From Candidatus Micrarchaeota archaeon (GTDB taxonomy: Archaea > Micrarchaeota > Micrarchaeia > Anstonellales > Bilamarchaeaceae), in contig JACRGD010000007.1 in assembly GCA_016212525.1 (NCBI GenBank), positions 15,112-79,111 of the forward strand: 64,000 nucleotides of DNA, given 5' to 3'. A model generated the notes under the pieces. That model worked only from the letters and a program-made list of their open reading frames with translations, was not told the DNA's origin and did not search any database. Shown one piece after another: positions 34,084 to 54,183 of the stretch. The translations under genes and the position numbers were made by a program. Numbering within the stretch: position 1 is the stretch's first letter; each line of letters begins with the position of its first letter.

Positions 34084-35082
34084 TCATAAATCCGATTTTT
34101 GATCAAAAAGAAGTTCCGCAACGACCGCCCTGTGATCTGAAGTAGGAGTCGGATCAACTTCATATCTTGCAAATTGAACCCCTGGACCTGCAAGGAATAT
34201 GTAATCTAAAGTTCGATTTGGTGCTACTGCCGGATAGGTATGAAATCCATCAAGAAGATCAGGGTTTGCATTGGCAGTTAGGTCAAATGGTGGAATAAAT
34301 AGTTTTTGTTCGATGATGTGCTGCATTGCAGGATCATGAGTATAGTCATCAGGATCGCCAGATAAATGACTGGGAAATGCCATTAGTCTTGAGGAGCGGG
34401 GTATCGCATTAAAGTCGCCGGCAATAACCATTGGCATATCAAAGCGTCTTAAAGCGCTTCGCACCTTTGTATGTAGTTTTTGTATCTGCCAGCCCCTGCC
34501 AAACGTATTTCCCCGAAGTTCAGGACCAAGATAGCGGATGATTTGATAAAATATGTCACTTAGGAGATGGGTACTATATACCCCAAAATCAGGACCGTCA
34601 GGAGGAGAGACCATTACAAAGGTAAAACCTTTGCATTCATTGAGCAATTTGACAAGATAATTCACCGGGAGATGAGGAGAAAAGGATTGACCAAAATCAT
34701 AACTGGTGTGTTCAGAAAGCGGATATTTAGAGATTACAACAGTACCAAGATCTCGCCCAAGCACAGTGTTTGAAACAAACGATTTCAACACACCTGGAAG
34801 CGGACTTCTTAGATGCGAAGACCCATGATAAAAACTAAAACCCAGACGATGAACAAGATATTCAAGTTGATTTATTCCTGCAGTCCTAAGAGAGAAAAAA
34901 TCAACCTCCTGCAGACACACAACCACTGCGCCCGAGGCAATAATTCTCTCGGCAATAACATCCAGATTTCGAAAAACTTGTTTTTTTGTTATCGGTTGAC
35001 GCAATTCTCCAAAAGGCCCATGAGCAGTATTGATGTTTTGAGAATATAGAATCACTCTGCAGGGCTCTTTGGCAAGTGCCAT
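34084..35082 (-). CDS. endonuclease/exonuclease/phosphatase (EEP) family protein
   Basis: NI, CLQEVD, GDFN, TYP, LDYIF, SDH. Confidence 0.9.
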   Translation of the reverse strand: MALAKEPCRVILYSQNINTAHGPFGELRQPITKKQVFRNLDVIAERIIASGAVVVCLQEVDFFSLRTAGINQLEYLVHRLGFSFYHGSSHLRSPLPGVLKSFVSNTVLGRDLGTVVISKYPLSEHTSYDFGQSFSPHLPVNYLVKLLNECKGFTFVMVSPPDGPDFGVYSTHLLSDIFYQIIRYLGPELRGNTFGRGWQIQKLHTKVRSALRRFDMPMVIAGDFNAIPRSSRLMAFPSHLSGDPDDYTHDPAMQHIIEQKLFIPPFDLTANANPDLLDGFHTYPAVAPNRTLDYIFLAGPGVQFARYEVDPTPTSDHRAVVAELLFDQKSDL

Positions 35083-35120
35083 AATAGATAAGTACAAAGA
35101 AGCTATAAAAGAAACGCAAA

Positions 35121-35148
35121 GTTACAAAGATATTTATAGTGGGAAAGA
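35121..35148 (+). promoter_or_regulatory. his cluster promoter 1 (BRE/TATA-like; 18-bp block shared with the hisF promoter)
   Basis: TATTTATAGTGGGAAAGA at 35131-35148, identical to 42510-42527. Confidence 0.75.
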
Positions 35149-35185
35149 CACAGACATTGTGTTAGTTAATGATTAGGTGAAAATA

Positions 35186-35484
35186 ATGGTGAACAAAAGA
35201 GGTATGGAAAGGGGTTTACTTCACCCCGATAAAGGAAAAGGATTTACTTCATCCGTCTGGATGCCAAAGCAAGACTAGTTTTACCGCTGTCAGTGCGGGA
35301 TCGATTAAACATCAAACCCAAAGACCAAATTTTACTTAGCGTTAGCAGTTTTTCGGATTCGGGGGATAAACAAACAATTACTTTAGTATTAGCGAAAGCC
35401 CCGGAAGATTTCCAGACTGAATCATATTCGTATTCGCGCAACGGGCGAGTTGTAGGAAAAAAATTTCGAGGTGGATTTGAATGA
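35186..35484 (+). CDS. AbrB/SpoVT-like DNA-binding protein, predicted to need two +1 frameshifts at CTT-CAY
   Basis: IRLDAKARLVLPLSVRDRLNIKPKDQI AbrB signature starts at 35251 in a frame closed upstream by TAA 35230; RBS AGGTGA + ATG 35186 is in another frame; stop overlaps the hisD ATG. Confidence 0.7.
35204..35252 (+). promoter_or_regulatory. two tandem putative +1 frameshift cassettes (SD-like, N3, CTT-CAY)
   Basis: ATG GAA AGG GGT TTA CTT CAC (35204-35224) and, in the +1 frame, AAG GAA AAG GAT TTA CTT CAT (35232-35252). Confidence 0.7.
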
Positions 35485-36839
35485 CTATTTTGAAAGTTCA
35501 GAGGTTAATTGATGCTGATTTATCTAAATTATTGGATCGCGGGACAACTAAGACAAATGTTATGCAGACAGTTCAATCGGTTTTTGAAGCGATTAAACTA
35601 CGTGGATTAACTGCAGCATTAGAATTTACAAAGCAGTTTGATGGAGTTACATTTAAATTTGCAAGTGAACTTTGCGTTTCAGATGCTTCGATAAAAGAGG
35701 CATATTCAAAATTGTCTAAAGAGCAAATAAGTGCAATTAAAGATTCGATAACCCGGGTTCGGGCATTTTGCATTGCTCAACTTCAAAATGTTCAAAACAC
35801 AAAACTCAAAACTGCAGAAGGTATCACTGAGCTTCGATGGCTTCCAATAGAGAGAGTCGGAATATATGCGCCAGCTGGCCGAGCTCCGCTTCCATCTTCA
35901 GTAATAATGGGTGCAATTACAGCTAAAGTTGCCGGAGTACGAAAACTGATCTTATGCGCTCCACCTCAAAAAGATGGGACTATAAATCCTGCAATTCTTG
36001 TTGCAGCTAATGAATGTGGAATAACTGAAATTTATAAAATTGGAGGAGCTCAAGCGATAGCTGCGATGACTTATGGATTATCAGCATCGAACATCGAGTT
36101 TCCGGCAGTGGATATGATTTGCGGGCCGGGAAACGCTTATGTTGCATACGCAAAGCAATACGCCGCATCTGAGGGGAGAGTAAAAATTGATACTATTGCA
36201 GGTCCGTCTGAAGTCTTAATTTTAGCAGATAAAACTGCAAACCCAAAACTCGTTGCAGCCGACATGCTTGCTCAAGCAGAGCACGGACCAACTTCGGCTG
36301 CAATATGCGTTTCGTGTTCAGAGAGTTTTTCCCAAAGTTTGGCAATCGAATTAGATCGCCAGCTTAACGCTTTTGGAGAAGGAGAAAAACAGGAACCCAT
36401 GCGAACTTCACTTAGAAATTGGGGTGCAATTTTGGTTGCTGAATCATTAGATCAGGCAATCGATTTTGTGAATGATTTTGCATCCGAGCACGTCGAACTT
36501 TATCTTGAAAATGCTGATAAAGTAGCCAATCGAATTACCTTTGCCGGAGCAATCTTTATAGGAACTGGAGAAGTCTTTGGCGATTATGGTATGGCTGGAG
36601 GAAATCACATTCTTCCAACTGGCAGATCTGCAAGATTTGCCTCTCCAGTTAGCGTGTATTCATTCCTGCGACAGCAACAAATCGAAAAGATGAATACCGA
36701 TGCACAAGCGCAACTTGCAGAAGCAACTGCTGATTTTGCCAGGGTTGAAACACTTGAAGCACATGCGCGCTCGGCTGAGGTTAGGGCTAGTGAATCTAAC
36801 ATTGCAAAAAATAATAATAATACAAAAGAGGAGGAGTAA
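35481..36839 (+). CDS. hisD: histidinol dehydrogenase
   Basis: GPGNAYV, AGPSE, QAEHG, SEH, GDY..G.NHILPT. Confidence 0.95.
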   Translation: MTILKVQRLIDADLSKLLDRGTTKTNVMQTVQSVFEAIKLRGLTAALEFTKQFDGVTFKFASELCVSDASIKEAYSKLSKEQISAIKDSITRVRAFCIAQLQNVQNTKLKTAEGITELRWLPIERVGIYAPAGRAPLPSSVIMGAITAKVAGVRKLILCAPPQKDGTINPAILVAANECGITEIYKIGGAQAIAAMTYGLSASNIEFPAVDMICGPGNAYVAYAKQYAASEGRVKIDTIAGPSEVLILADKTANPKLVAADMLAQAEHGPTSAAICVSCSESFSQSLAIELDRQLNAFGEGEKQEPMRTSLRNWGAILVAESLDQAIDFVNDFASEHVELYLENADKVANRITFAGAIFIGTGEVFGDYGMAGGNHILPTGRSARFASPVSVYSFLRQQQIEKMNTDAQAQLAEATADFARVETLEAHARSAEVRASESNIAKNNNNTKEEE

Positions 36840-36840
36840 A

Positions 36841-37893
36841 ATGACTGAAATTGATGTTTTAGTTCGAGATAGTATTAAACAAATAAAGGAATATTCAAGG
36901 CCGCCAATACTAGATACCGGAATAAAACTGAATCAAAATGAATCGCCTTATGGCTTACCTTTAGAAGTAGTTAGGGAATTTGAGAAAAGACTTGCAAAAC
37001 TTGCCTTCAATAGATATCCTGAAGGTTCATCTGAAAAACTACGAATTAAAATCGCAAGAAAATTCAAAACAAATCCAGATCAAATAGTAGTAGGTTGTGG
37101 AATCGATGAGATTCTTTATTATCTTTTGATGGCCTTTGTTGAAAAGGGAGACAAACTAGTAAGGCCGGTTCCAAGTTTTGGGATGTATCCAATTTGCGCT
37201 CAGGTTAGTGCTGCAAAAGATGTTCCAGTTCAACTTAGTGATAAATTTGATTTGACTGAAGAATTTGTAACCCAGAGCAAAGATGCCAAAATGACAATTA
37301 TTTGCAGTCCAAACAATCCAACCGGAAATTGTATGAATAAGAAACTAATTGAACGAATAATTCAGGGGACTTTGGGTTTAGTTGTAATAGATGAAGCATA
37401 TGCAGATTTTGCAGAATCAGATTGCATGGATTTTCTTAAATACGACAATGTGATTTTACTAAGGACTTTTTCTAAAGCAGGTTCATTTGCTTCCGGAAGA
37501 CTAGGATTTTCTGTTTCCAGTAAGAAAATTGCCGATTATATTAACCGAGTCAGACTTCCCTGGAACGTTAGTGCCATGGTTCAGGAACTAGGTGAATTGA
37601 TTTTGGATTATGAACCTCTTTTCCTTGAAAAAATTGAACAAATTAAAAAAGACCGGAATGTTTTGCTTTCAGAATTGAAAAAGATCGTAAAGACATATCC
37701 AACTGATTGTAATTTCTTTCTTTTTGAAGTGAAAGACCCTAAAAAAGTTTTTGAAAAACTGATTTCAGAAGGAGTTCTTACCCGAAATATAAGTGGAAAT
37801 TCTCCAAGACTAAAAAACTGCCTTAGAGTCTGTGTTGGAACCAGAGAAGAAAACGAAAAATTCCTTCGCGCACTTAAGAGGTGTTTGGAATGA
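36841..37893 (+). CDS. hisC: histidinol-phosphate aminotransferase
   Basis: NESPY, NRYP, SPNNPTG, DEAY, RTFSK. Confidence 0.95.
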   Translation: MTEIDVLVRDSIKQIKEYSRPPILDTGIKLNQNESPYGLPLEVVREFEKRLAKLAFNRYPEGSSEKLRIKIARKFKTNPDQIVVGCGIDEILYYLLMAFVEKGDKLVRPVPSFGMYPICAQVSAAKDVPVQLSDKFDLTEEFVTQSKDAKMTIICSPNNPTGNCMNKKLIERIIQGTLGLVVIDEAYADFAESDCMDFLKYDNVILLRTFSKAGSFASGRLGFSVSSKKIADYINRVRLPWNVSAMVQELGELILDYEPLFLEKIEQIKKDRNVLLSELKKIVKTYPTDCNFFLFEVKDPKKVFEKLISEGVLTRNISGNSPRLKNCLRVCVGTREENEKFLRALKRCLE

Positions 37894-38543
37894 AATTTGA
37901 TGCAATAATTTTTGATGTGGATGGAGTTTTAATTGATGTAAGTCAGTCGTACCGGATTGCAATAATCAGAACGGTCAAACAATTTAGTGGCAAGCAAATC
38001 AGCAATGCTGATATTGATTTGCTTAAGCAAACCCCTGGTTTCAATAATGACTGGGATGCGTCATTTGCACTAAACAAAGAAATAACTGACCCAAAACAGG
38101 TTGACCGTACTTCTGATGAATACAAAAAAATGAAGGACTATTTTCAAAGTCAATATTTAGGCGAACTTATCTTTAAAGAAAAATCCCTAATTGATTTAAA
38201 AACTCTTGAACTTCTTAGTTCAAAAGGTCTGAAAATGGGGGTTGCAACCAGCAGGCCAAGAGAGGAAGCTTTCATTGCGTTAAGAACTGCCGGAATCAGT
38301 CCAAAATACATCTTAGAAAGAAATGTTGTTGCACAGGAAGATGCGCCAGAAAAACCTTCTCCAGAACCACTTCTTTTAGCAAAGAAAAAAATCAATGCAA
38401 CAAATCCTGTTTATGTTGGGGATACTTCCAGTGACAAACTGGCAGCAGAGCGGGCAAAAATGCCCTTTATTTATTGTAAGAAAAATCCCCAGATTGAGCT
38501 GATGGAAATTGAGAATGTGAATCAATTAATTGATGTGATTTAA
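37890..38543 (+). CDS. HAD-superfamily phosphatase, probable histidinol-phosphate phosphatase
   Basis: FDVDGVL, KPSP, YVGD; ATGA-coupled to hisC and directly followed by hisB. Confidence 0.8.
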   Translation: MKFDAIIFDVDGVLIDVSQSYRIAIIRTVKQFSGKQISNADIDLLKQTPGFNNDWDASFALNKEITDPKQVDRTSDEYKKMKDYFQSQYLGELIFKEKSLIDLKTLELLSSKGLKMGVATSRPREEAFIALRTAGISPKYILERNVVAQEDAPEKPSPEPLLLAKKKINATNPVYVGDTSSDKLAAERAKMPFIYCKKNPQIELMEIENVNQLIDVI

Positions 38544-39203
38544 ATGGTAAATCGAACTGCAAAAATAACCCGGAAAACAAAGGAAACAGAAATAGAAGTC
38601 GAACTTAATTTAGATGGAAGCGGGAAAAGCGACATTAAAATCGGAGTTGGTTTTCTTGAGCACATGCTAACCTTATTTGCCGCACGAGGGATGTTTGACC
38701 TAAAAGTTTTCGCAAATGGCGATTTAGATGTCGATGATCACCACACAATCGAGGACATAGGAATCTGTATCGGTCAGGCATTTTCAGAGGCAATAGGAGA
38801 CAAGCGAGGCATACGCAGGTACGGGTTTTGGATTCTTCCGATGGACGAAACGCTTGCAACTATTGCACTTGATCTTAGCGGACGCAGTGCTTTGGTTTGG
38901 AACGTCCAGTTCGAACGCGAGAAAATTGGCGATATGAGTACAGAAATGCTCTATGACTTTTTCGACGCATTTTCACGTAATGCCCAGGTAAATTTACACA
39001 TGAAAATCGAGTATGGAAGAAACGAGCACCACAGAGCCGAAGCCCTCTTTAAGGGGTGGGGAATGGCAATGCGCATGGCTTGCGAGATTGATCCACGACA
39101 GATTGGAATTCCAAGCACAAAGGGAATTCTTAGCGAAAGTACCGACACAGCTAAGTCGAAAGTAGAGGTGAAAAACTATGATACGTTTAGCAATTCCAAA
39201 TAA
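38544..39203 (+). CDS. hisB: imidazoleglycerol-phosphate dehydratase (monofunctional)
   Basis: DDHHTIED, PMDE, NEHHRAEALFK, PSTKG. Confidence 0.96.
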   Translation: MVNRTAKITRKTKETEIEVELNLDGSGKSDIKIGVGFLEHMLTLFAARGMFDLKVFANGDLDVDDHHTIEDIGICIGQAFSEAIGDKRGIRRYGFWILPMDETLATIALDLSGRSALVWNVQFEREKIGDMSTEMLYDFFDAFSRNAQVNLHMKIEYGRNEHHRAEALFKGWGMAMRMACEIDPRQIGIPSTKGILSESTDTAKSKVEVKNYDTFSNSK

Positions 39204-40062
39204 AGGCCGCATTTCAACTGAAGTTTTGCGGCTTCTATCAAAAATCGGGCTTGAAGTCCCGGAAAACGGAAGAAAGCTTTATGCAAATACAAACAATCCT
39301 AACATTCAGATTGTTTATGCGCGTGCAGCAGATATTCCGTTTTTTGTCTCTGCAGGAGTAGCGGATGCCGGGATTACTGGAGAAGATATGATTTTGGAAA
39401 GCTCGGAGGAAGTAAGTGAAGAAAATGCAAAAAAATCGATAACGAAGTTACTACGATTGAATTTTGGAAAATGCAAAATCGTTGTCGCAGCGCCAAATAA
39501 TTCGAAGATAAATTCAACACAAGATTATCCAGCTAAAGTTCGGGTTGCAACCAAACTTACAAACATAACTTCGAGGTATTTTAGATCAAAGAAAATCAAT
39601 GCAAAAATCATCAGACTCTCAGGTGCAACTGAACTAGCCCCAGCACTTGGTATTGCTGATTTAATTGTAGATCAGGTTAGTACGGGAACAACTTTGGCAG
39701 CAAATAATCTAAAAATTGTCGATGAAATTTTCGAATCTGAGATCTATCTGTTTGCAAATAGCCGGTCTTTGAAAGAAAAAACCGAAGATCTGGATTCACT
39801 GAAGACCTCATTTGAAAGTGTAATTACTGCCGAATCCAAACGATATATCATGGTGAATGCTGATGGCGAAGATACTTTAGCACGAGTTACTGCCGTGATG
39901 CCTGCATTAGACAGTCCAACCATTCTTAAACTTGCAAAAGTCGGGTCTTATGCAGTTCACAGCGTCGTCGATGCCAATGAACTAATCGGCACCATTTGCA
40001 AGATAAAAAAGGCAGGCGGAACTGGAATTTTGGTCATGAACGCATCGCGCGTAGTCGAATGA
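39178..40062 (+). CDS. hisG: ATP phosphoribosyltransferase (long form)
   Basis: AIPNKGR, DAGITGED, GATELAP, DQVSTGTTL, C-terminal regulatory domain. Confidence 0.95.
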   Translation: MIRLAIPNKGRISTEVLRLLSKIGLEVPENGRKLYANTNNPNIQIVYARAADIPFFVSAGVADAGITGEDMILESSEEVSEENAKKSITKLLRLNFGKCKIVVAAPNNSKINSTQDYPAKVRVATKLTNITSRYFRSKKINAKIIRLSGATELAPALGIADLIVDQVSTGTTLAANNLKIVDEIFESEIYLFANSRSLKEKTEDLDSLKTSFESVITAESKRYIMVNADGEDTLARVTAVMPALDSPTILKLAKVGSYAVHSVVDANELIGTICKIKKAGGTGILVMNASRVVE

Positions 40063-40075
40063 TGAGGCTAAACCT

Positions 40076-40723
40076 ATGACTCAGATTACCATCATTGATT
40101 ATGGCGCAGGAAATGCAGTAAATGTGCAAAATGCCCTGCAAAAACTGGGTGCCAATTGCAAGATTAGCGCAAGCGAAACTGACTGGTTAAATGCAGATGG
40201 CATTATTTTTCCAGGAGTCGGTGCCTTTGGCCCGGCCATGCAAAATTTAGGGAAGCGTAGCCAAATTCTCAGAAGAATCATTAACGAATCTGATCGCCCG
40301 TTTCTTGGCATATGCCTTGGAATGCAACTTCTCCTTGAAAAAAGTGAGGAAAGCCCAAGTACAGAAGGCCTGGGGGTTTTGGAAGGGTCGGTTTTGCGTT
40401 TTGAATCCAATGCTTTGGGTTCTGAAACTAAATCTCTTCCAGTTCCACAAATTGCATGGAATGAGGTTAATGTAGTTAGTAACTCGGGTAAATGTTCTCC
40501 GCTTTTTGATGGTCTTGCAGATAGATTCTACGCGTATTTTGTTCACTCATATTACTGCAAAGTTAGTGATCGTTCATTAGTTGCTGCTACGGCTAAATAT
40601 GGAATTGAATTCGATTCTTCAATCTGGAAAAAGAATCTTTTTGCAACTCAGTTTCACCCTGAAAAAAGCGGAAACGATGGGTTAACGATATTGCAAAATT
40701 TCCTAGATGAGGTGAAATGCTAA
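40076..40723 (+). CDS. hisH: imidazole glycerol phosphate synthase glutaminase subunit
   Basis: DYGAGN, PGVG, GICLGMQ, FVHSY, QFHPEKS. Confidence 0.96.
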   Translation: MTQITIIDYGAGNAVNVQNALQKLGANCKISASETDWLNADGIIFPGVGAFGPAMQNLGKRSQILRRIINESDRPFLGICLGMQLLLEKSEESPSTEGLGVLEGSVLRFESNALGSETKSLPVPQIAWNEVNVVSNSGKCSPLFDGLADRFYAYFVHSYYCKVSDRSLVAATAKYGIEFDSSIWKKNLFATQFHPEKSGNDGLTILQNFLDEVKC

Positions 40724-41434
40724 ATGGTTATTGATAAATTTCAGGTTATTCCGGCAATCGACTTGATGGGTGGTCAATGCGTTCGATTGGTCAAGGGTGA
40801 AAAACAGAATAAAATCGAGTATGCGATTTCACCGTATGAAATGGCTAAGAGCTATCTTGAATATGGTGCAAAACTCATCCACATAGTTGATTTAGATGGC
40901 GCATTTACTGGTCAGATGACCAACCTTCCAATTATTTCAAAACTCGCAAGCGAATATCCAATCCAGGTCGGAGGTGGAATACGCAATGAAGAGCGAATTA
41001 GAGAATTGCTTTTGCTTGGAGTGAAAAGAGTAGTTGTGAGTTCGCTTCTACTAAAAAATCAGGAATTGGCAACTGAACTAAAAACCAAATACAAAGGAAA
41101 GCTCGTTGGCTCATTTGATTTTAAAAATGGCAGATTAGCTTATGCAGGTTGGACAAAAGAAAGTGAACTCAAATTTAACGAGGTCGTTGCAGGTTTAGAT
41201 GAAATTGTTGTGACTGACACCAATAAAGATGGAACGTTTGAAGGACCCAATCTCGAATTGCTTTCATCGCTTCGGGCGAGCTACCCGAACATCAAAATCA
41301 TCTCAGCTGGAGGAGTCAAAGATGAATCTGATCTTGCTGCCTTAGAAGGAATCGGAATTGATGGGGTTATCATAGGCAGAGGATTTTTCGAGAAGATGAT
41401 AAAACTGTCTGTTCTTGGAGGGTGTAAAAGATGA
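40724..41434 (+). CDS. hisA: ProFAR isomerase
   Basis: PAIDL..GQCVRL, HIVDLDGA, QVGGGIR. Confidence 0.94.
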   Translation: MVIDKFQVIPAIDLMGGQCVRLVKGEKQNKIEYAISPYEMAKSYLEYGAKLIHIVDLDGAFTGQMTNLPIISKLASEYPIQVGGGIRNEERIRELLLLGVKRVVVSSLLLKNQELATELKTKYKGKLVGSFDFKNGRLAYAGWTKESELKFNEVVAGLDEIVVTDTNKDGTFEGPNLELLSSLRASYPNIKIISAGGVKDESDLAALEGIGIDGVIIGRGFFEKMIKLSVLGGCKR

Positions 41435-41649
41435 CATGTTTGAATCGGATATCGATTCAAGAAAAGAGAGGGTAGAAGTTTAGTATCGAATACGGCAGCC
41501 AAAAATAGCAACGAAAACTGGTTAAATATCTGATTGAATTGGAATTAATTTTGACGCAAGGCCGTAAGTTGCACGAAGTATTTAAGCATCTGACACCAAC
41601 TGAACAAGCTATGCTTGAATTTCAAGCCAGGAATATTCTTTTATCTTGA
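41431..41649 (+). pseudogene. possible decayed gene coupled to hisA (two in-frame TAG)
   Basis: ATGA overlap with the hisA stop and GGAGGGTG RBS; TAG at 41473 and 41506, then open to TGA 41647. Confidence 0.3.
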
Positions 41650-42306
41650 AAATGGACTAATCGCATTCAATTGCCTTACAGCCAGCTCAAGATTGCCCGC
41701 TCCAAGTGCTGCTTGCGCGTTTGCAAAATGAGGTGAGCTTGCTATTGCAGATGCGGATACGTGATGGGTCCTAACTAAAAACGACTCACATAATTCACGT
41801 CGGTATTCTTCAGTATACCGCTCAGGATGTGCTAAAACACGTCTAGCTTCTGCATAAGCCATTTGGAAATAGAATCCATCAGCACCAGTTTCTCGTATGG
41901 GTTGAGGTATAGCTTGCTCAGGACTCGTGCTAAATGGTTGCTCCCTAAGGCGCGGTAATGCCGCATCTAGCCTAGATAAAATTGTCGTAAGCATTCGCCA
42001 AGCAGTTTGAACAGAACAATTCTCTGGTGGGGTTGGAGGCAGTCGCAATTGGGAGAGAGCAGTTAATTCTGCTGGACTCATTTGATCTCTATGATTATAC
42101 AAAATATCTCCAACCCTTCCCCTGGCTTCATTTATTGCATTTAATAAATCGTCTCGGACGTGAGGTGTGTTTGGTAGATTATATTTATATCGTTCGTATA
42201 TTTGTCTGGCAAAATTATACTTAACCATGACCTCTGCAGGCAAAAGCATTCGTTCCGAAGGCTGAAGCCTTGTGCTGTGCTCCTGAATTATTTGGAATAG
42301 AAACAT
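41641..42306 (-). CDS. hypothetical protein splitting the his cluster
   Basis: 221-aa ORF with GGTGA RBS on the opposite strand; no recognisable motif. Confidence 0.65.
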   Translation of the reverse strand: MFLFQIIQEHSTRLQPSERMLLPAEVMVKYNFARQIYERYKYNLPNTPHVRDDLLNAINEARGRVGDILYNHRDQMSPAELTALSQLRLPPTPPENCSVQTAWRMLTTILSRLDAALPRLREQPFSTSPEQAIPQPIRETGADGFYFQMAYAEARRVLAHPERYTEEYRRELCESFLVRTHHVSASAIASSPHFANAQAALGAGNLELAVRQLNAISPFSR

Positions 42307-42499
42307 GTCACCATTTATCGGTCATAGTTTAAATCATTTTGGCTCAAAAAAATAAATGACTTTTAACTACTGCATAAGTGCGTATCGCTTTGAGTAGGAA
42401 AGTTTCGCGTAGTTCCTAATATCAAGGAAGATCAAAAATGTATCGAGTGCTTAAAGTTGGAAATCGTGAAACCCGACACTCAGCTTAAGTTCTCTTCCG

Positions 42500-42527
42500 G
42501 TCACAAATTTATTTATAGTGGGAAAGA
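42500..42527 (+). promoter_or_regulatory. his cluster promoter 2 (copy of promoter 1)
   Basis: GTCACAAA-TT-TATTTATAGTGGGAAAGA vs GTTACAAA-GA-TATTTATAGTGGGAAAGA at 35121. Confidence 0.75.
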
Positions 42528-42553
42528 TAACTAATTATGTTAAGGTTGTAAAA

Positions 42554-43358
42554 ATGGAAAAGGATATACTTCACAAAAATTAGGACTTCTAAATCGCCAC
42601 TTTGTAAACGGATTATTCCCTGTCTTGATGTCAAAAACGGTCGGGTAGTTAAAGGCACTAATTTTGTTGGTCTTAAAGATGCCGGAGATCCGATCGAACT
42701 TGCAAGGAAATATTACGAAGACGGGGCAGACGAGCTGGTTTTTCTTGATATTACTGCTAGTAGTGAAGGTCGAAACACGGTAGTTGAACTAGCTAAAGCA
42801 GTTGCGCAGGAAGTCTTCATTCCGTTTACTATCGGTGGGGGCATTCGAACTATCAAAGATATTGAAGCGCTACTTAAGGCAGGAGCAGATAAAGTTTCCA
42901 TCAATACGGCCGCAATAGTTAATCCCAAACTGCTAACAGATGCGGCTTGTGAATTCGGAAATCAGGCCATCGTCATTGCAATCGATGCCAAACAAAACGA
43001 ATCAGGGAGTTGGAATGTTTACAAAATGGGCGGGTGCATTGACACTAACTTTAATGCCATGGAATGGGCAAAAAAGGCAGTTTCTCTAGGAGCCGGAGAA
43101 GTTCTTCTAACAAGCATGGATAGAGATGGAACTCAAAGTGGATTCGACATCGAGCTAACTCGTGCGATTGTTAAGGCTGTGAACGTTCCAGTTATTGCGT
43201 CAGGCGGTGGCGGAAAAGTCGATGACTTCATTAATGTTTTTCAAAAAACAAACGTTTCGGCAGCACTTGCAGCCGGAATTTTCCACTATGGAAAAATAAC
43301 AATTGGTGGCCTAAAAAAAGAATTAAAATTAGCGGGAGTTGATATTCGTGAAATCTGA
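42554..43358 (+). CDS. hisF: imidazole glycerol phosphate synthase cyclase subunit, predicted to need one +1 frameshift at CTT-CAC (42569-42574)
   Basis: Intact [19 protein letters not shown]...[10 protein letters not shown]...GGGIR frame from 42600 has no ATG/GTG/TTG between TAA 42549 and ATG 43026; ATG 42554 opens MEKDILHKN* in the adjacent frame. Confidence 0.9.
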
Positions 43359-43989
43359 AAACAATAATTTTGACAAAGACATTCAAAAGGATAAAAGTAG
43401 GGTCGATCAAATCAAGTTCGATAACGATGGATTAGTTCCAATTATAGTTCAGGATGCAAATACAGGAGTAGTGCTCTCACTCGTCTATGCCAATTCGGAT
43501 GCAGTCTGCCGGATGCAGGAAACTGGTTTTGTCTGGCGCTATAGTCGCTCGAAGAAAAAAATAATGCAAAAAGGAGAAGAAAGCGGGAACGTTCAGAGGA
43601 TCGTTTCAATCGATTTAGACTGTGACAAAGATGCTCTGCTAGTTCGAGTATTACCTGAAGGACCTGCATGCCACCTGAGTACGGTTTCATGTTTTGGATC
43701 TGAAGAGGTAGCAGATATGCTTTCTGAACTTGCACTCATAATAAAAGACCGAAGACAAAATCAAGACTCAAATCAAAATTCATACACCGCAAAGGTAGTT
43801 TCAAATCGGGAGCTCGCAATCGAAAAGCTACGTGAAGAATGCGAGGAATTGATCGAAGCTAAAGAAAAGAAGGATCTGATCTGGGAGGCGGCTGATCTTC
43901 TCTACTTTACGCTAGTTTATTTTGAGAATCGCGAGGTTGAATTTGGGGATGTCTTGAAGGAACTAAGACGAAGACGTCTAAGTCACTAA
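43348..43989 (+). CDS. hisIE: bifunctional PR-AMP cyclohydrolase / PR-ATP pyrophosphatase
   Basis: GLVP.IVQD, SRS, KGEESGN, DCDKD, PACH...SCF; SYT, K..EE, EAADLLY. Confidence 0.94.
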
Positions 43990-44080
43990 ACCTAACCGCG
44001 CCAGGTTATGCAGTCTTATGGTCAGTAAAATAGAAGCACCAATCCCGATCGGGGTAAGAGGGAGCAGTATGAAACGAAAC

Positions 44081-44839
44081 TTATCGCTCGAGTAGTTGAT
44101 CAATTGTCGCCCGCATTGTCCCGATCGGCTGTGCTCCGATAATTGGAACGACATCCCTGCCATCTCTGCGGGCAATAAAGAAATAGGGAGTCCCATCGAC
44201 TCCGATCGATTTGCCGTAATTAATATCGGACTGGATCTTAGATATCCCATCTTCTGAGTTAATACAGATGTCAAAGACACTCCGATTTAGACCTATTTCG
44301 CTCGCCCAAACCTTAAAGTCATTGACAGTTATCGGATAGGTACTAAGGCCCAATTGAGCCTGCTTATCGTAAATGATATTATGCATCTGCCATTGCTTGC
44401 CCTGCAACTTTGCACATTCAACAGCCTGAGCGGCACCCATTGCACCTGGATGAATATTAGTATAGGGGAAATTACGATAGACCAGTTCTAGTTTACCTTT
44501 GTTGACATAATCAGCAGTTAAATTTGGCAGAACCAAAGTCGTGAATCTTCGACAAAAGGGGCATTGATAATCGGAGAACTCAACCAGAACCACAGGAGCA
44601 GATGCATTACCCATACGCATGTCTCCCCTGATAAGCTCGCTGACGTTTATATTTGGACCAAATTGAGAAATCGGAACAACTCCCACAGCAGAGGGATTAG
44701 GAGAAGAATTTAGATTAGAAAGTGATGAGTTTGGATTTGTAGGCGAGATATTCTTTGAGCCTGAATTTTGAGAAACACAACCAAATCCAATTATGAAAAC
44801 CAATAACACCGCCAGAACAATGACCTTTTTCATAAACAA
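44081..44839 (-). CDS. DsbA-family thiol-disulfide oxidoreductase (lipoprotein-like)
   Basis: GFGC signal, EFSDYQCPFC, GTPYF, GAQP. Confidence 0.9.
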   Translation of the reverse strand: MFMKKVIVLAVLLVFIIGFGCVSQNSGSKNISPTNPNSSLSNLNSSPNPSAVGVVPISQFGPNINVSELIRGDMRMGNASAPVVLVEFSDYQCPFCRRFTTLVLPNLTADYVNKGKLELVYRNFPYTNIHPGAMGAAQAVECAKLQGKQWQMHNIIYDKQAQLGLSTYPITVNDFKVWASEIGLNRSVFDICINSEDGISKIQSDINYGKSIGVDGTPYFFIARRDGRDVVPIIGAQPIGTMRATIDQLLER

Positions 44840-48615: not shown

Positions 48616-49476
48616 TTATTGGCAAAGATGGGTGTTCTGGTTGCAGACTTCACCTACATTGCAGTTCTGATTATCATTGCAGAATCCGACCTTGGGAGTG
48701 CATGCATGAGACTCGCAAATCTGATAGGATGCATCACAATCTGCAGTTGTCGCACATTTACCTGCGCTGGGAGTGCATCGGTGAGTTGAGGTCGAGCAGT
48801 ATTCCCAGTCAGTACATTCATTGTCAACACCGCAGAAACCAACCTTTGCGACGCATTTGTTTGTTCGTCCATCGCACTTGGCCCAGGTCTTATCGCAGTT
48901 ATTATCGTTTATGCAGAAACCGGCCTTTGGTTTGCATTGGTGAGTCTTTGGTTCGCAAGTCTGCCAGGTTGTGCAGTCTCCATCAAAGTCGCATCGATCT
49001 GGAAGATAGACACATTTACTCGATTGCTGATCGCAGCGTTTCCATGAATCACAATCAGTGTCTTTTACGCAGAAGCCGGGAGCAGGACCGCATCGGTGAG
49101 TACTAGGACTACAATACTCGACTACAGGCTGGCATTGAGTATCGCCATCGCAGAAACCTGGACCGGGTCTGCAATATTTTGAGGAATCACACACCTGCCA
49201 GCTTTGACAATCGACATTAGTACCACATCGACCGGCAGTATAGATACATTTGTAGGATTTGCCCACATCACAGGTCAAAAGAGAAGCATTGCCAGTATTA
49301 TTGCCGCAGTCTGCAGGAGACTCGCAGTAGCCAGGTAGTTTCATGCATGTTTTTGTACCAAGATTGCATGACTGCCATGGCCGACAATCCTTATCTGCAC
49401 TGCATGAAGGAGCAGTGTTAATACATCCAAAAATAAATATTGACGCCAAAAGAGCAGCTAATATAAGTAATCTCAT
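48616..49476 (-). CDS. Cys-rich repeat surface lipoprotein
   Basis: IFGC lipobox-like; ~10 repeats of G(F/R)C..D.DC..WQ.C.....C. Confidence 0.85.
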   Translation of the reverse strand: MRLLILAALLASIFIFGCINTAPSCSADKDCRPWQSCNLGTKTCMKLPGYCESPADCGNNTGNASLLTCDVGKSYKCIYTAGRCGTNVDCQSWQVCDSSKYCRPGPGFCDGDTQCQPVVEYCSPSTHRCGPAPGFCVKDTDCDSWKRCDQQSSKCVYLPDRCDFDGDCTTWQTCEPKTHQCKPKAGFCINDNNCDKTWAKCDGRTNKCVAKVGFCGVDNECTDWEYCSTSTHRCTPSAGKCATTADCDASYQICESHACTPKVGFCNDNQNCNVGEVCNQNTHLCQ

Positions 49477-49593
49477 AAAGGAGATATTTCCGGCCAATGT
49501 TTTTTAAAGCTCCCGCAATCGATCGGGGGTTGCGAAACATTTGAACTCCAAATACGCGATATTAAGAGAGAGTTATTCAGTTAAAATACGAAA

Positions 49594-50302: not shown

Positions 50303-52801
50303 CTATTGATTGGACTCGACAAAGATAGTTGGAGTGTATCCTGTGCCAGTCTGTCTTGGAGAACGTGGTCTTCGTGCTCCTGCATCAGAAGGTACTGGGG
50401 CAGGAACTGCCGCCACTGGAACAACTACAGGAGCTGGAACCACTACCGGAGGCGCAACAACTGCAGGAACTGTGGTATCAGCAGGAACTGAAGAATCTAC
50501 TTGTACCGATGCATCTGCGCTTGGCAAAGGTGCACCTATTGGAGCGCCCAAGGGAACAGATCTACGCGGAGCAGATTCAACAACTGCCGGAGTTGGATGT
50601 GTTTGCGGAGTTCTTGTAGATTTCCACCAAATACCGAAAACACCACCGCCAAGTATTCCAACAACCACAGCAGCTACCCAGGCTTTAAAGGTTCTTGGTC
50701 TGGATGGCAACGCGGATGGATCAACCTCGACAGTGCTTTCTGGATCGACTATAGGGTCGGCGGGAGCTGATGGTGAGAAATCAGCCCTCAAAGTAGTCCC
50801 GTCTCGTGGGCTAGGTCTTTGGGCAACCGGTTCCGAACCAGTATTAGATGTGCCACGAACAGCTCTCGAGGGAGCACCTACAGCAAAGACCTCATCATCC
50901 CAAGGACCAGCCTTAGGGGATGCACGAGTTGTGGGTGGACTAACCGGAGCGTGCGGACCGCTCACGGATGCAGGACCCGGAAGAACACCACCTGGACCGC
51001 GTCTAGTTGCAGTATCTGATGCAACAGGAATCGGAGCAGGAGCCCTTGCTGGAGGCTCAGAACCAAAGGCACCACCCATCATCAGCGTACCACTTGGTGA
51101 TGGAGGTTCACGAAGCACTGGAACAGCTGCCTCATTTGAATTGAAAAGATTTAACCTTAGAAGTCTTCCAGGACCCACTAAAACCTGACCAGATAGTTTA
51201 TCAGTAACGTTAAACATATCCGAACGTCCGGTAATATAGTTCAAATGGAAGGGAGTTGAATCATGCCCATAAGTAACTACGTCAGAATCAGTGGCTATCA
51301 CAACCCGAGCACCAGTAGAATCAGAAAGCACATAGGGAACATTTGGAGCAATATCAGCCATGGATTTAGTTGCATTGACTACTTGCGCACCCCTAAGAAA
51401 TTCGATATTTGAACCCTCATCTGAGTTAGTAACTCGAACCACATCAGAACCAACTTTGGCATATTTAGTTTCGCCAATTTCGACCTTCAAAAAAGCATCG
51501 ACCCTGCCTCCAGAGAAAACAACAAACTCATTAGAACCATACCTAACCAGATTGAGACTAGCAGAAAGAGCAACTACAGTATTGGTATCTTCTAATTTGC
51601 ATTCATAAACAGAAGGACAACCTGATTTCTCTGCTACTTCTTCCAAATTTAGAAGACGAACTGAAACCTTATCAGGAAGACGTCGTGAAACCTCAACTGC
51701 ATAATCGTTACCCATCAAAGATAGTTTTGCATATCGAACTTCTTGGAAGTCAATGGATACCAACTGGTCAGGAGAGCCTAAAGCACAGACCTGAACTTCA
51801 TGGGCATTTGAGAAATAAACGTTCAAAGCAGGACCAAAATTCCTAGATTCACCAACAACCAAATCAGATTTGTTTGGCCGCTCAACTAGACAGTATGAAC
51901 CCTGCGAATCAACATATTCAGAAGTATAGACAACCCCTCTTAAAAGAGCCAAACCAGCTACATCATATTGAACAGAACCGCCGGGAGTGTCTGAAACATC
52001 AAAGTGATGGTCGCCACTACCAGTATAGACCAAATCAACATATCCCGAAGGAGATGCTGCCCTACCATCGCGTACAGGAGTTACCGTAGATGCAGTAGGT
52101 AAAGCAGGAGGAAGTTCATTTTCTGTCCAGACCGAATAATAACGAGTACCGGAGTTTTCCCATCCCAAAACATACGCATCAACACCTGCAGCCATGGCCG
52201 GAGGAACATAGGAAGCAAGTTTAGCTTCAAATACGGCCGGATGATCAGGAACAGAAGCAAGGAAATCCCCGTCTAATTCAGTTATAGTCACATCAGACCC
52301 AGAAGTATCAACATAGATACCCAAAGGCAATCGAACTCCATTTGTATATATGTTAGAGTCAGGAACAATTTCGGCCGGACCGTATCGATGAACAGTTCGA
52401 GTAACATCGACACTAAGTTCACCATTCTTAACAGTAAGCGTGGCATCAAAACCAGTATTACCATGACGAACAAGAATAGACGCTGAATCATTATTAGAGT
52501 TAACATCAAGTTCGGTTCTTGGAATTAGATCATCTAGATTCTTCAGGTAAAAAGGTACATAATTATTGGCAGAATCACGAAGTTCTACAGATCCGACTCC
52601 AGATGAAGTGACATTAGAACAAACAAGCTTCAAATCACCCGGCAAAGTACAGTATTCTTTTACTTCCAAGGATTTGCGAGTTGTTTCTGGACCAGCTGCA
52701 CGAGCAGCAGCAGCTAGAGGCGGAGGCAATGCCACATTACCACCAGTAACATGCGCTGGAACTTCAGAAGCAATTCTTGCACCTATTAATTTTTTTGCCA
52801 T
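50303..52801 (-). CDS. large hypothetical membrane-anchored protein (beta-rich N-region, Pro-rich linker, TM, Pro/Ala/Val tail)
   Basis: 832-aa ORF; TM AWVAAVVVGILGGGVFGIWW; GAGGGTG RBS. Confidence 0.75.
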   Translation of the reverse strand: MAKKLIGARIASEVPAHVTGGNVALPPPLAAAARAAGPETTRKSLEVKEYCTLPGDLKLVCSNVTSSGVGSVELRDSANNYVPFYLKNLDDLIPRTELDVNSNNDSASILVRHGNTGFDATLTVKNGELSVDVTRTVHRYGPAEIVPDSNIYTNGVRLPLGIYVDTSGSDVTITELDGDFLASVPDHPAVFEAKLASYVPPAMAAGVDAYVLGWENSGTRYYSVWTENELPPALPTASTVTPVRDGRAASPSGYVDLVYTGSGDHHFDVSDTPGGSVQYDVAGLALLRGVVYTSEYVDSQGSYCLVERPNKSDLVVGESRNFGPALNVYFSNAHEVQVCALGSPDQLVSIDFQEVRYAKLSLMGNDYAVEVSRRLPDKVSVRLLNLEEVAEKSGCPSVYECKLEDTNTVVALSASLNLVRYGSNEFVVFSGGRVDAFLKVEIGETKYAKVGSDVVRVTNSDEGSNIEFLRGAQVVNATKSMADIAPNVPYVLSDSTGARVVIATDSDVVTYGHDSTPFHLNYITGRSDMFNVTDKLSGQVLVGPGRLLRLNLFNSNEAAVPVLREPPSPSGTLMMGGAFGSEPPARAPAPIPVASDTATRRGPGGVLPGPASVSGPHAPVSPPTTRASPKAGPWDDEVFAVGAPSRAVRGTSNTGSEPVAQRPSPRDGTTLRADFSPSAPADPIVDPESTVEVDPSALPSRPRTFKAWVAAVVVGILGGGVFGIWWKSTRTPQTHPTPAVVESAPRRSVPLGAPIGAPLPSADASVQVDSSVPADTTVPAVVAPPVVVPAPVVVPVAAVPAPVPSDAGARRPRSPRQTGTGYTPTIFVESNQ

Positions 52802-52803
52802 AG

Positions 52804-54171
52804 TTAAGCACCCTCTTTAGGAACTATAGATATAAGTGTCTCGTATGCATCACGAATACTAGCAGCCAGATCAGCCATTGCATCAGGCTTAAGAACATGG
52901 GGAATCTGAACATGTTCAACTGGAAGAAGTTCATCTGTCTTCCTTGGATTAGGAACATTATCAGATGGAACGAACAAAGCATCCCCATAAGATCCCACAA
53001 CCAAAGCTGCAATTCTCATCATAGATGCAGAATTACCATAGGTCAAACTTCTTGCAGCTGCCAGTCCGGAATCTGGATGATTAGATAAAAAGTCTTGGAA
53101 CTGATCTCCATGAGAACGACCTCTACCATCATCAAGTGCGATTTCTACCAGTTGGCGATGTAACTCTAAATCAGAAAGATGTGGATACTCATGAACCATT
53201 TGAGGAGTTACAAACCTAGCTGCAATGGCCATAACATGTGCAACGGTTGTGGTTGAAAGCTGATCATAAAGAGTCTGCAGATCGCCAACTGATCCGGAAG
53301 TAATTGCAGCCGCGGCACTATCATATGCAGCAGGAGCAACAGCAGTTGAGACGTATCGATGAACATCAACAGCAAATGCAGGATCAAGGATAATTGAAAC
53401 CGCTCTATCTAGATTCATATAAGAAGCAACAGCACATAAATTAACATGATATTGCAACTGGTCAGAATAATTTGGATCTGCCGGATTCATACCAAGAAAC
53501 ACAGGAACGTGTGGATCGAGAGCTTGGGCCAAAGCCAATTTTCTTTCAGAAGCAGCAACCTGAGCCTTAAGATCTGCGACTTGGGTTACTAGAGCATCGT
53601 GTTTATCGACACGAGCAACTACTTCTCGAACAGCCTTTGCTACAACAGCCAAACGACTTTTTGAAGCTCCATCACGAGCAACAGCTTCAGTTCTCGTAAG
53701 TGCGGTACTAAGAGTATCGACACGAGCTGCTATATCGGAAACACGAGAAACTGCCTGAGTTACGGCAACAGGAACTTTAGGAACTACGACGTCATTTACA
53801 AACTCGCCAAATACAGATCTTGCTGTTATTGCTTCTTCAGTTCGCTCCTCAGCTGGTGCTCGCATAGCAGCGACTCCGGTTCTTGCAATGGCAAATAGAG
53901 CAGCGCCCAAAGTACTACGAACACTTCGTTCATCCTCAGAAAGATCAGTAGCACCAACCAAACGAGTAGCTGCAGAAACAGTGAGAGAAATTACACTAGA
54001 GGCAAGAACACCTCTCATGCTTGGAACAGATTTATCATCTGCATCAATAGAATCTGAACCACGAACATCTCCTGCAGCTCGAGCAAATGTCTTTACTAAT
54101 TTTAGAGCATCGTTGAACTTACCTATTTCCTTCGGATTCGTAATAACCGGTTTTGTTGTAGTAGCACTCAT
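52804..54171 (-). CDS. hypothetical Ala-rich helical protein
   Basis: 455-aa ORF, 2-nt gap to the next gene. Confidence 0.75.
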   Translation of the reverse strand: MSATTTKPVITNPKEIGKFNDALKLVKTFARAAGDVRGSDSIDADDKSVPSMRGVLASSVISLTVSAATRLVGATDLSEDERSVRSTLGAALFAIARTGVAAMRAPAEERTEEAITARSVFGEFVNDVVVPKVPVAVTQAVSRVSDIAARVDTLSTALTRTEAVARDGASKSRLAVVAKAVREVVARVDKHDALVTQVADLKAQVAASERKLALAQALDPHVPVFLGMNPADPNYSDQLQYHVNLCAVASYMNLDRAVSIILDPAFAVDVHRYVSTAVAPAAYDSAAAAITSGSVGDLQTLYDQLSTTTVAHVMAIAARFVTPQMVHEYPHLSDLELHRQLVEIALDDGRGRSHGDQFQDFLSNHPDSGLAAARSLTYGNSASMMRIAALVVGSYGDALFVPSDNVPNPRKTDELLPVEHVQIPHVLKPDAMADLAASIRDAYETLISIVPKEGA

Positions 54172-54183
54172 ATTTCATCCCCC

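Follow-up and report, generated by a model that had tools for sequence, protein, structure and literature searches.

An intact hisF gene without a start codon of its own was found in the window, the 64,000-nt stretch of Candidatus Micrarchaeota archaeon DNA analysed here, and its frame is joined by a predicted +1 shift to that of a 9-codon leader ORF. As judged from sequence, a regulatory +1 frameshift has strong comparative support, and we consider it very likely that amino-acid shortage would trigger the slippage and switch the gene on, the amino acid at hisF being His, read at CTT-CAC. The arrangement is that of a cassette: a tiny leader ORF with a purine-rich element, a spacer of 3 nt, then CTT and a single sense codon, a stop close by, and a gene in the +1 frame. 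Its layout, its conservation, and a match between the sense codon and the pathway concerned were observed across relatives and are described below. The features discussed are collected in Table 1.

Table 1. Coordinates of the features discussed (window positions unless a locus is named)
Feature	Position	Strand	Remarks
Predicted promoter of the main his operon	35121..35148	+	Same TATA-like box as at hisF; GTGGGA 35139-44
30-codon leader ORF, frame 0, first cassette	35186..35278	+	CTT 35219-21 / CAC 35222-24
+1 segment with second cassette	35223..35339	+	CTT 35247-49 / CAT 35250-52
Startless AbrB-like ORF, 77 codons	35251..35484	+	TGA overlaps hisD ATG
hisD, hisC, HAD phosphatase, hisB, hisG, hisH, hisA	35481..41434	+	hisD, hisC, hisB, hisG, hisH above curated cut-offs; hisA just under
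221-aa orphan ORF in the hisA/hisF insert	41641..42306	-	No Pfam match
Predicted archaeal promoter of hisF-hisIE	42500..42527	+	TATA-like box 42512-42519; GTGGGA 42518-42523
9-codon leader ORF, frame 0	42554..42583	+	ATG 42554; His is codon 7; stop TAG 42581-83
Predicted +1 shift cassette of hisF	42557..42574	+	Repeat D3; fits the family consensus
Startless hisF frame (+1 relative to the leader)	42573..43358	+	Conserved HisF core from 42600
hisIE	43348..43989	+	GTG 43348 (TTG 43339 possible); start overlaps the hisF end
AbrB-ACT-like gene	L157:190-573	+	Further loci in G150, G295, G419, G024, G026, G015, G178, G262

The hisF frame and its leader

No stop interrupts the hisF frame between TAA 42549-51 and TGA 43356-58, and the first ATG, GTG, or TTG after that TAA is ATG 43026, which bears out the initial annotation of an intact hisF lacking an in-frame start. 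The His-containing 9-codon upstream ORF was likewise reproduced, as was the 267-aa HisF (6 + 261 residues) that a +1 shift at CTT-CAC 42569-74 would yield. In this copy of the cassette, a purine-rich element (42557-65) is followed by a 3-nt spacer, the P-site codon CTT (42569-71), and the sensor codon CAC (42572-74); the Shine-Dalgarno (SD) sequence of ATG 42554 is weak (-3.8 kcal/mol). The two motifs that had been noticed to match sequences 7.3 kb away are real and correspond to repeat D7 (35121/42500) and repeat D3 (35203/35231/42553). Moreover, the interpretation of CTT-CAC as a +1 shift site is supported by evidence that reaches well past the hisF locus.

Leader and promoter of the main his operon

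In the leader of the main his operon, an SD-like GGTGA (-8.3 kcal/mol) precedes ATG 35186. Its two cassettes lie in successive frames, and two successive +1 shifts from this ATG are the only route into the startless AbrB-like ORF; without the second shift, the segment between them would continue to a stop. The AbrB-like ORF scored under the curated cut-offs (TIGR01439, 20.5 versus 28.3; PF04014, 16.7 versus 24.7) and gave weak matches to solved AbrB/SpoVT chains, and it was not assigned to AbrB/MazE/SpoVT. Within the 1.47-Mb genome, the cassette motif occurs three times and the promoter motif twice, all within the two his leaders, and no convincing cassette beyond them was seen among 187 loose motif matches genome-wide.

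A profile search identified homologs of the AbrB-like ORF in 50 of 401 phylum genomes. The best 30 loci were fetched and 28 were located. At all 28 xTT-CAY leads into the gene, as read by script at 26, with the second site mis-picked at one of them, and from the printed DNA at 2; two His sites stand in series at 22, and an in-frame ATG, GTG, or TTG is absent at 18.

Upstream of the two his leaders of the window, the predicted promoters (repeat D7) are 89% identical between 42500..42527 and 35121-35148, and on the basis of the consensus 42512-42519 and its counterpart within 35121..35148 are putative TATA boxes. A scan for sigma-70 promoters and terminators returned matches at chance level only. 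GTGGGA follows the TATA-like box in 28 of 28 located AbrB-like leaders, and none of the 9 Trp and Pro leaders has it; in seven his leaders it forms a tandem repeat. Furthermore, nine genomes have an AbrB-ACT-like gene next to the his locus, often together with tandem GTGGGA; no such gene was found in the genome studied here. This co-occurrence suggests that GTGGGA is likely an operator of the his regulon, with the AbrB-ACT-like protein as a candidate for its transcription factor. The frameshifted AbrB-like protein was also considered as the sole reader of GTGGGA and rejected, because tandem GTGGGA occurs in genomes where the AbrB-like ORF was not found; in those genomes an AbrB-ACT-like gene is nearby.

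Operon layout and the insert before hisF

The curated cut-offs were passed by hisD, hisC, hisB, hisG, and hisH, and hisA (219.5 bits) fell just under its cut-off of 228.95. The hisIE gene is intact, with PRA-CH and PRA-PH domains and 192.1 bits against a cut-off of 187 for NF002747. The HAD phosphatase after hisC (37881-38543, +) is likely a histidinol-phosphatase. In four relatives (L155-L158), a single open frame of 567-577 codons occupies the hisC position, which suggests a fusion there; a HisS-like gene follows hisIE in these relatives and is not present in the window.

A 1.1-kb insert lies between hisA and hisF. No homolog of its 221-aa orphan ORF was found in the genome or in the fetched loci. 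At 41431-41640 (+), a frame of just 14 codons starts from an ATG that overlaps the hisA stop and is followed by a second open stretch; no homolog of this region was found in the genome or loci, and it may be what is left of a gene brought in by the insert. The residues CKR at the hisA end were considered as a duplicated hisF start and rejected, as they correspond to the SD and spacer of the overlapping ATG 41431. We consider it likely that hisF-hisIE acquired its own promoter and cassette when the insert separated it from hisA. Farther along the window, at 48616-49497 (-) and 50303-56562 (-), lie a cysteine-rich repeat protein and three long Ala/Pro/Val-rich ORFs.

Distribution of the cassette in the family and phylum

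Across the 401 phylum genomes, 56 contained the strict His pattern, with 91 matches in all, compared with 12 for a reversed-pattern control; 67 of the 91 came from the organism's family, namely from this genome and 33 of its 75 relatives there. When 27 long +1 frames were scanned, they comprised 7 HisD, 6 HisG (one fused to HisD), the HisF described here, 2 radical SAM proteins, and 1 chance match inside a PmbA gene; the other ten had no Pfam match at the threshold used.

To guard against circularity, the search was also run from the protein side, which identified HisD in 21 of 99 family genomes. In 10 of these 21, the frame into which the cassette leads is that of hisD, and one of the ten also has an ATG just after the cassette. 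Eight genomes have hisD with a normal start behind a cassette-bearing leader, two have it deeper in an operon that opens with cassettes, and in the last one no cassette was seen in the 1.5-kb hisD flank. The genomes are related, so these counts do not represent independent events. Behind the cassette, several of the hisD, trpE, and AbrB frames contain an in-frame ATG, GTG, or TTG, which is a possible start.

In the metagenome set (27 loci, 12 of them removed as probable chance matches), a His cassette stands before a tRNA-His gene at 11 loci, some of them near-duplicates, with the tRNA called in 10. At eight loci (L032, L036, L037, L043, L044, L050, L054, and L055), the +1 frame passes through tRNA-His and closes where a HisS-like gene starts, HisS being identified in these loci by resemblance only.

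Genes of other kinds were also seen behind His cassettes. M15 (D-Ala-D-Ala dipeptidase-like) genes occur in this position at L053:344-1054 (+) and L337. In genomes where hisD was not found, a protein of ~355 aa follows His cassettes (L081:83-1144, -; L069, L072, L077, and L080); it had no Pfam or NCBIfam match, and the ESM Atlas pointed weakly to cyclodipeptide-synthase-like clusters (score 0.94, low recognition).

Sensor codons and biosynthetic pathways

With the sensor codon left free, the 99 family genomes yielded 140 matches versus 32 in the control, and 70 of them were His. A total of 139 sites were re-read in their loci, and 83 passed an architecture filter (a start at most 30 codons away, a zero-frame stop within 40, and a +1 frame that is long, tandem, or coupled). 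The filtered sites were His (60), Phe (8), Pro (5), Trp (4), Cys (4), Tyr (1), and Leu (1). In all 83 the sensor codon starts with C or U, and none of the 14 purine-starting sites qualified; C/U-first codons are what re-pairing on UUY requires.

Cassettes with a His codon precede hisD, hisG, or hisI in relatives, and many precede non-his genes. The +1 frames behind Trp sensor codons are TrpE, and those behind Pro codons are ProC and ProB. CTT-TAT leads into aspartate kinase, followed by semialdehyde dehydrogenase (asd) and a DeoC-family aldolase, a trio that presumably supplies aromatic biosynthesis in archaea. Behind most Phe and Cys cassettes lie a small HTH ORF and genes without an evident pathway link, the small-HTH loci being L163, L164, L166, L180, L181, and L192 for Phe and L188, L190, and L193 for Cys. 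No Trp or Pro cassette was found on hisD among the hisD loci examined.

The same question was approached from the protein side for trpE and proC. Among 28 trpE loci examined (34 matches; 2 incomplete loci dropped), CTT-TGG was present at 5, an ordinary start at 22, and a startless frame with a variant site at 1. The last (L284, trpE of G150) has a leader with His and then Trp codons and no CTT, and may be either a variant or a decayed cassette. CTT-CCA was present on 2 of 30 proC genes examined (of 37 matches) and ordinary starts on 28, while a third cassette-bearing proC and one proB were found from the motif side. The trpE and proC genes of this genome have ordinary starts.

Constraint on the RNA and the decoding components

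Of 40 sites defined by homology, 38 have CTT as the P-site codon and 2 have GTT, CTT accounting for 32% of Leu codons here. The codon at -3 is GAT or GGT in 39 sites and that at -4 is AGG or AAG in 37, whereas the residues vary and both His codons are used. The locating rule, here as in the searches that started from HisD, TrpE, ProC, and the AbrB-like ORF, fixed TT and the pyrimidine after it (CAY at the AbrB sites) and left the remaining positions free. Codons that are kept while the encoded residues vary indicate a constraint on the RNA rather than on the peptide.

The 16S rRNA of this genome ends with the usual anti-SD, and the mean anti-SD pairing of the family sites was -7.4 kcal/mol versus -2.5 for 1755 control CTTCAY sites. 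The SD-like element of the hisF copy reached -2.6 kcal/mol, no better than background. All three sites in the window have CTT-C, that is, the CUU plus pyrimidine of prfB-type sites. The genome also encodes tRNA-His(GUG) and tRNA-Leu(GAG), the latter being able to re-pair from CUU to UUC.

Proposed mechanism

We infer the following order of events at hisF. A ribosome would initiate at ATG 42554 and, given ample His-tRNA, would read CAC and stop two codons on. When His-tRNA is scarce, it would pause with CAC in an empty A site, and peptidyl-tRNA-Leu (anticodon GAG) could then re-pair from CUU to the overlapping UUC, probably assisted by the upstream Shine-Dalgarno-like pairing, as in prfB. The resulting HisF of 267 aa would carry a 15-residue N-terminal extension, and hisIE would be made next, by translational coupling. 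The main operon would be gated by two sites in series before the AbrB-like ORF, whose stop overlaps the hisD start. For genes with a strong SD of their own, such as hisD, coupling or polarity is our guess at how gating might extend to them.

For the Micrarchaeota family as a whole, we think it probable that the cassette is a portable ribosomal switch of ~18 nt that would convert aminoacyl-tRNA scarcity into a +1 frameshift and so control amino-acid biosynthesis. A change of one codon would retune it (His, Trp, Pro, Tyr, and perhaps Phe and Cys), tandem copies would sharpen it, and new transcription units created by operon breakage would receive a copy, as at hisF.

Alternative routes into the hisF frame

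With the leader still translated, HisF could also be made by initiation or reinitiation at the near-cognate codons ATT 42579 or ATA 42564, both of which lie in the hisF frame, the former overlapping the leader TAG. Frameshifting would then be incidental, and the His codon would act through pauses or control at the mRNA level. The internal purine element does look like an initiation SD, the shift stimulator of hisF is weak, and the E. coli pheL leader provides a precedent in which frameshifting can be incidental (PMC3082878). However, this route is not general, since the +1 frames after Trp and Pro sensor codons begin with GGN or CAN and two proC frames contain no ATG, GTG, or TTG at all, and it leaves the invariant CTT and the C/U rule unaccounted for. 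Folding gave z values of -0.14, +1.85, and +0.73 for the three leader stretches; the hisF leader (+1.85) folds worse than shuffles, which speaks against this route, as does the lack of a terminator in this leader. In an Rfam search over 34900-44200, the one sub-threshold match was inside hisC and no cis-element was found over the leader, and leader folding gave no support for a hairpin hiding the hisD SD. We therefore regard near-cognate initiation as unlikely.

Integrity of hisF

The hisF protein was assigned to HisF family TIGR00735 with 347.5 bits against a cut-off of 294.55, covering profile positions 2-254 of 254; it also aligns with solved HisF chains along its whole length. Its identity to 7 genus orthologs was 62-67%, with pS of 0.68-0.77 and pN of 0.23-0.25, similar to the values among the orthologs themselves (pS 0.71, pN 0.23). 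It departs from 2 of 69 invariant columns, and ten relatives, compared by leave-one-out, depart from 1-12 each. Relaxed selection, which the initial annotation had named as evidence that would speak against its reading, was checked and not seen by pN/pS, although synonymous sites are near saturation, so that a very recent loss of function would escape the pairwise measure.

The family contains 16 hisF orthologs, of which 15 were located. An in-frame start is present in all 15, directly before xxKRII in 14 and 16 codons upstream in one, and the latter indicates that an N-terminal extension of HisF occurs naturally. The cassette motif is absent within 120-150 nt of hisF in every one of the 15, and the hisF copy is thus local to this genome. 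Relatives with an ATG directly before LxKRII and without the leader motif had been named in advance as an argument against the frameshift, and in the literal sense such relatives exist (14 of 15 with the direct start, 0 of 15 with the motif). The reading nevertheless survives, because hisA abuts hisF in those relatives (in 14 of 15 located orthologs, by upstream translations) and the cassette stands mostly at the operon head.

Of 16 hisF copies, only the one in this genome is arranged in this way, which would also fit a young pseudogene, its start lost with the insert or cut off by a nonsense mutation to TAA 42549 after ATG 42537, with a WbuZ-like paralog in its place. This paralog of WbuZ type (G000:C5:304990-305733, L002) lies elsewhere on the same contig, has a normal ATG, is 48% identical to hisF, and passes both the WbuZ and the HisF cut-offs; it might substitute for hisF. 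However, it scores best as WbuZ and lies behind its own HisH-like gene, hisF shows no decay, and the downstream hisIE has remained intact. A full promoter and cassette, otherwise seen only at the head of the his operon, precede hisF in exactly the right frame. The nonsense-mutation caveat of the initial annotation also proved weak. In archaeal promoters the transcription start can be placed relative to the TATA box; ATG 42537 is 25 nt past the first T of the TATA-like box and hence at or before the expected transcription start. Taken together, these points make a pseudogene quite unlikely.

Correction of the frame in the RNA, by polymerase slippage, editing, or splicing, might be suggested by the A-rich hisF leader and by its run of five A just 3' of the His codon, and appears very unlikely: no long homopolymer is conserved among the 40 sites, folding revealed no bulge-helix-bulge intron structure in the hisF leader, and the codon-pathway match would be left unaccounted for. 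An assembly or base-call error at TAA 42549 can practically be set aside, as dozens of genomes show this out-of-frame layout too and 0 differences were found in contigs, not read pileups, from two samples of one study, namely run X1 (depth 46.6; 34800-44200), from which this DNA may itself derive, and the shallow run X2 (depth ~3; 42540-42808, with TAA 42549 only 9 nt inside the contig end, and 35003-35658); a further run, X3, had no coverage at the site.

Discussion

The closest known relative of the predicted +1 shift is prfB, in which, according to PMC5009743, the shift site is CUU-U with an SD 3 nt upstream. Like prfB (PMC5009743; PMC3711429), the cassette has a short zero-frame ORF, a purine-rich SD-like element 3 nt before CUU, then a pyrimidine, and a functional product in the +1 frame whose output is predicted to increase under scarcity of the A-site ligand. 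In prfB, however, the A site holds UGA and the product is release factor 2, whereas the cassette uses a sense codon that varies with the pathway. It is moreover archaeal, targets biosynthetic genes or regulators, and occurs as tandem sites and on several genes of one operon. The hisF cassette would therefore work like prfB without being a member, because its A-site codon CAC is a sense codon and its gene is hisF rather than that of RF2.

The cassette also resembles hungry-codon frameshifting, in which slippage occurs at a codon whose aminoacyl-tRNA is limiting. That phenomenon has been studied as a starvation effect in E. coli, whereas the cassette appears to be selected and modular. A 2016 review stated that no functional starvation-specific trans-frame product was known from hungry-codon frameshifting (PMC5009743).

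With the attenuators hisL, trpL, and pheL, the cassette shares a leader ORF in which a codon for the pathway amino acid reads tRNA charging. It differs in having one sensor codon rather than a run and in joining the gene to the leader by a change of frame; each site has one His codon, and neither alternative hairpins nor a terminator were found in the leaders examined here. In eukaryotic antizyme, the shift takes place at a stop codon, is driven by polyamines, and relies on other stimulators. Antizyme, named in PMC8211752, is similar in that a +1 frameshift serves as a metabolite sensor. Archaeal fucA1 is likewise a recoded archaeal chromosomal gene, but uses a -1 shift on a slippery heptamer in a single gene, and it is the only cellular archaeal case given in a 2021 review (PMC8211752). 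No description of such a cassette was found in the open-access literature, a coverage that mostly leaves out subscription journals. The present analysis adds a cassette on an internal operon gene, counts defined from the protein side, and Trp, Pro, and Tyr versions within one family.

If the proposed switch is real, gene callers would truncate or miss hisD, hisG, hisF, trpE, and proC here, and claims of auxotrophy for these genomes would be biased as a result. It would also represent natural, selected hungry-codon frameshifting and +1 recoding in archaeal cellular genes. Beside attenuation and T-boxes, it would constitute a third general mode of leader-based amino-acid sensing, and it would provide DPANN-type archaea with a compact amino-acid sensor.
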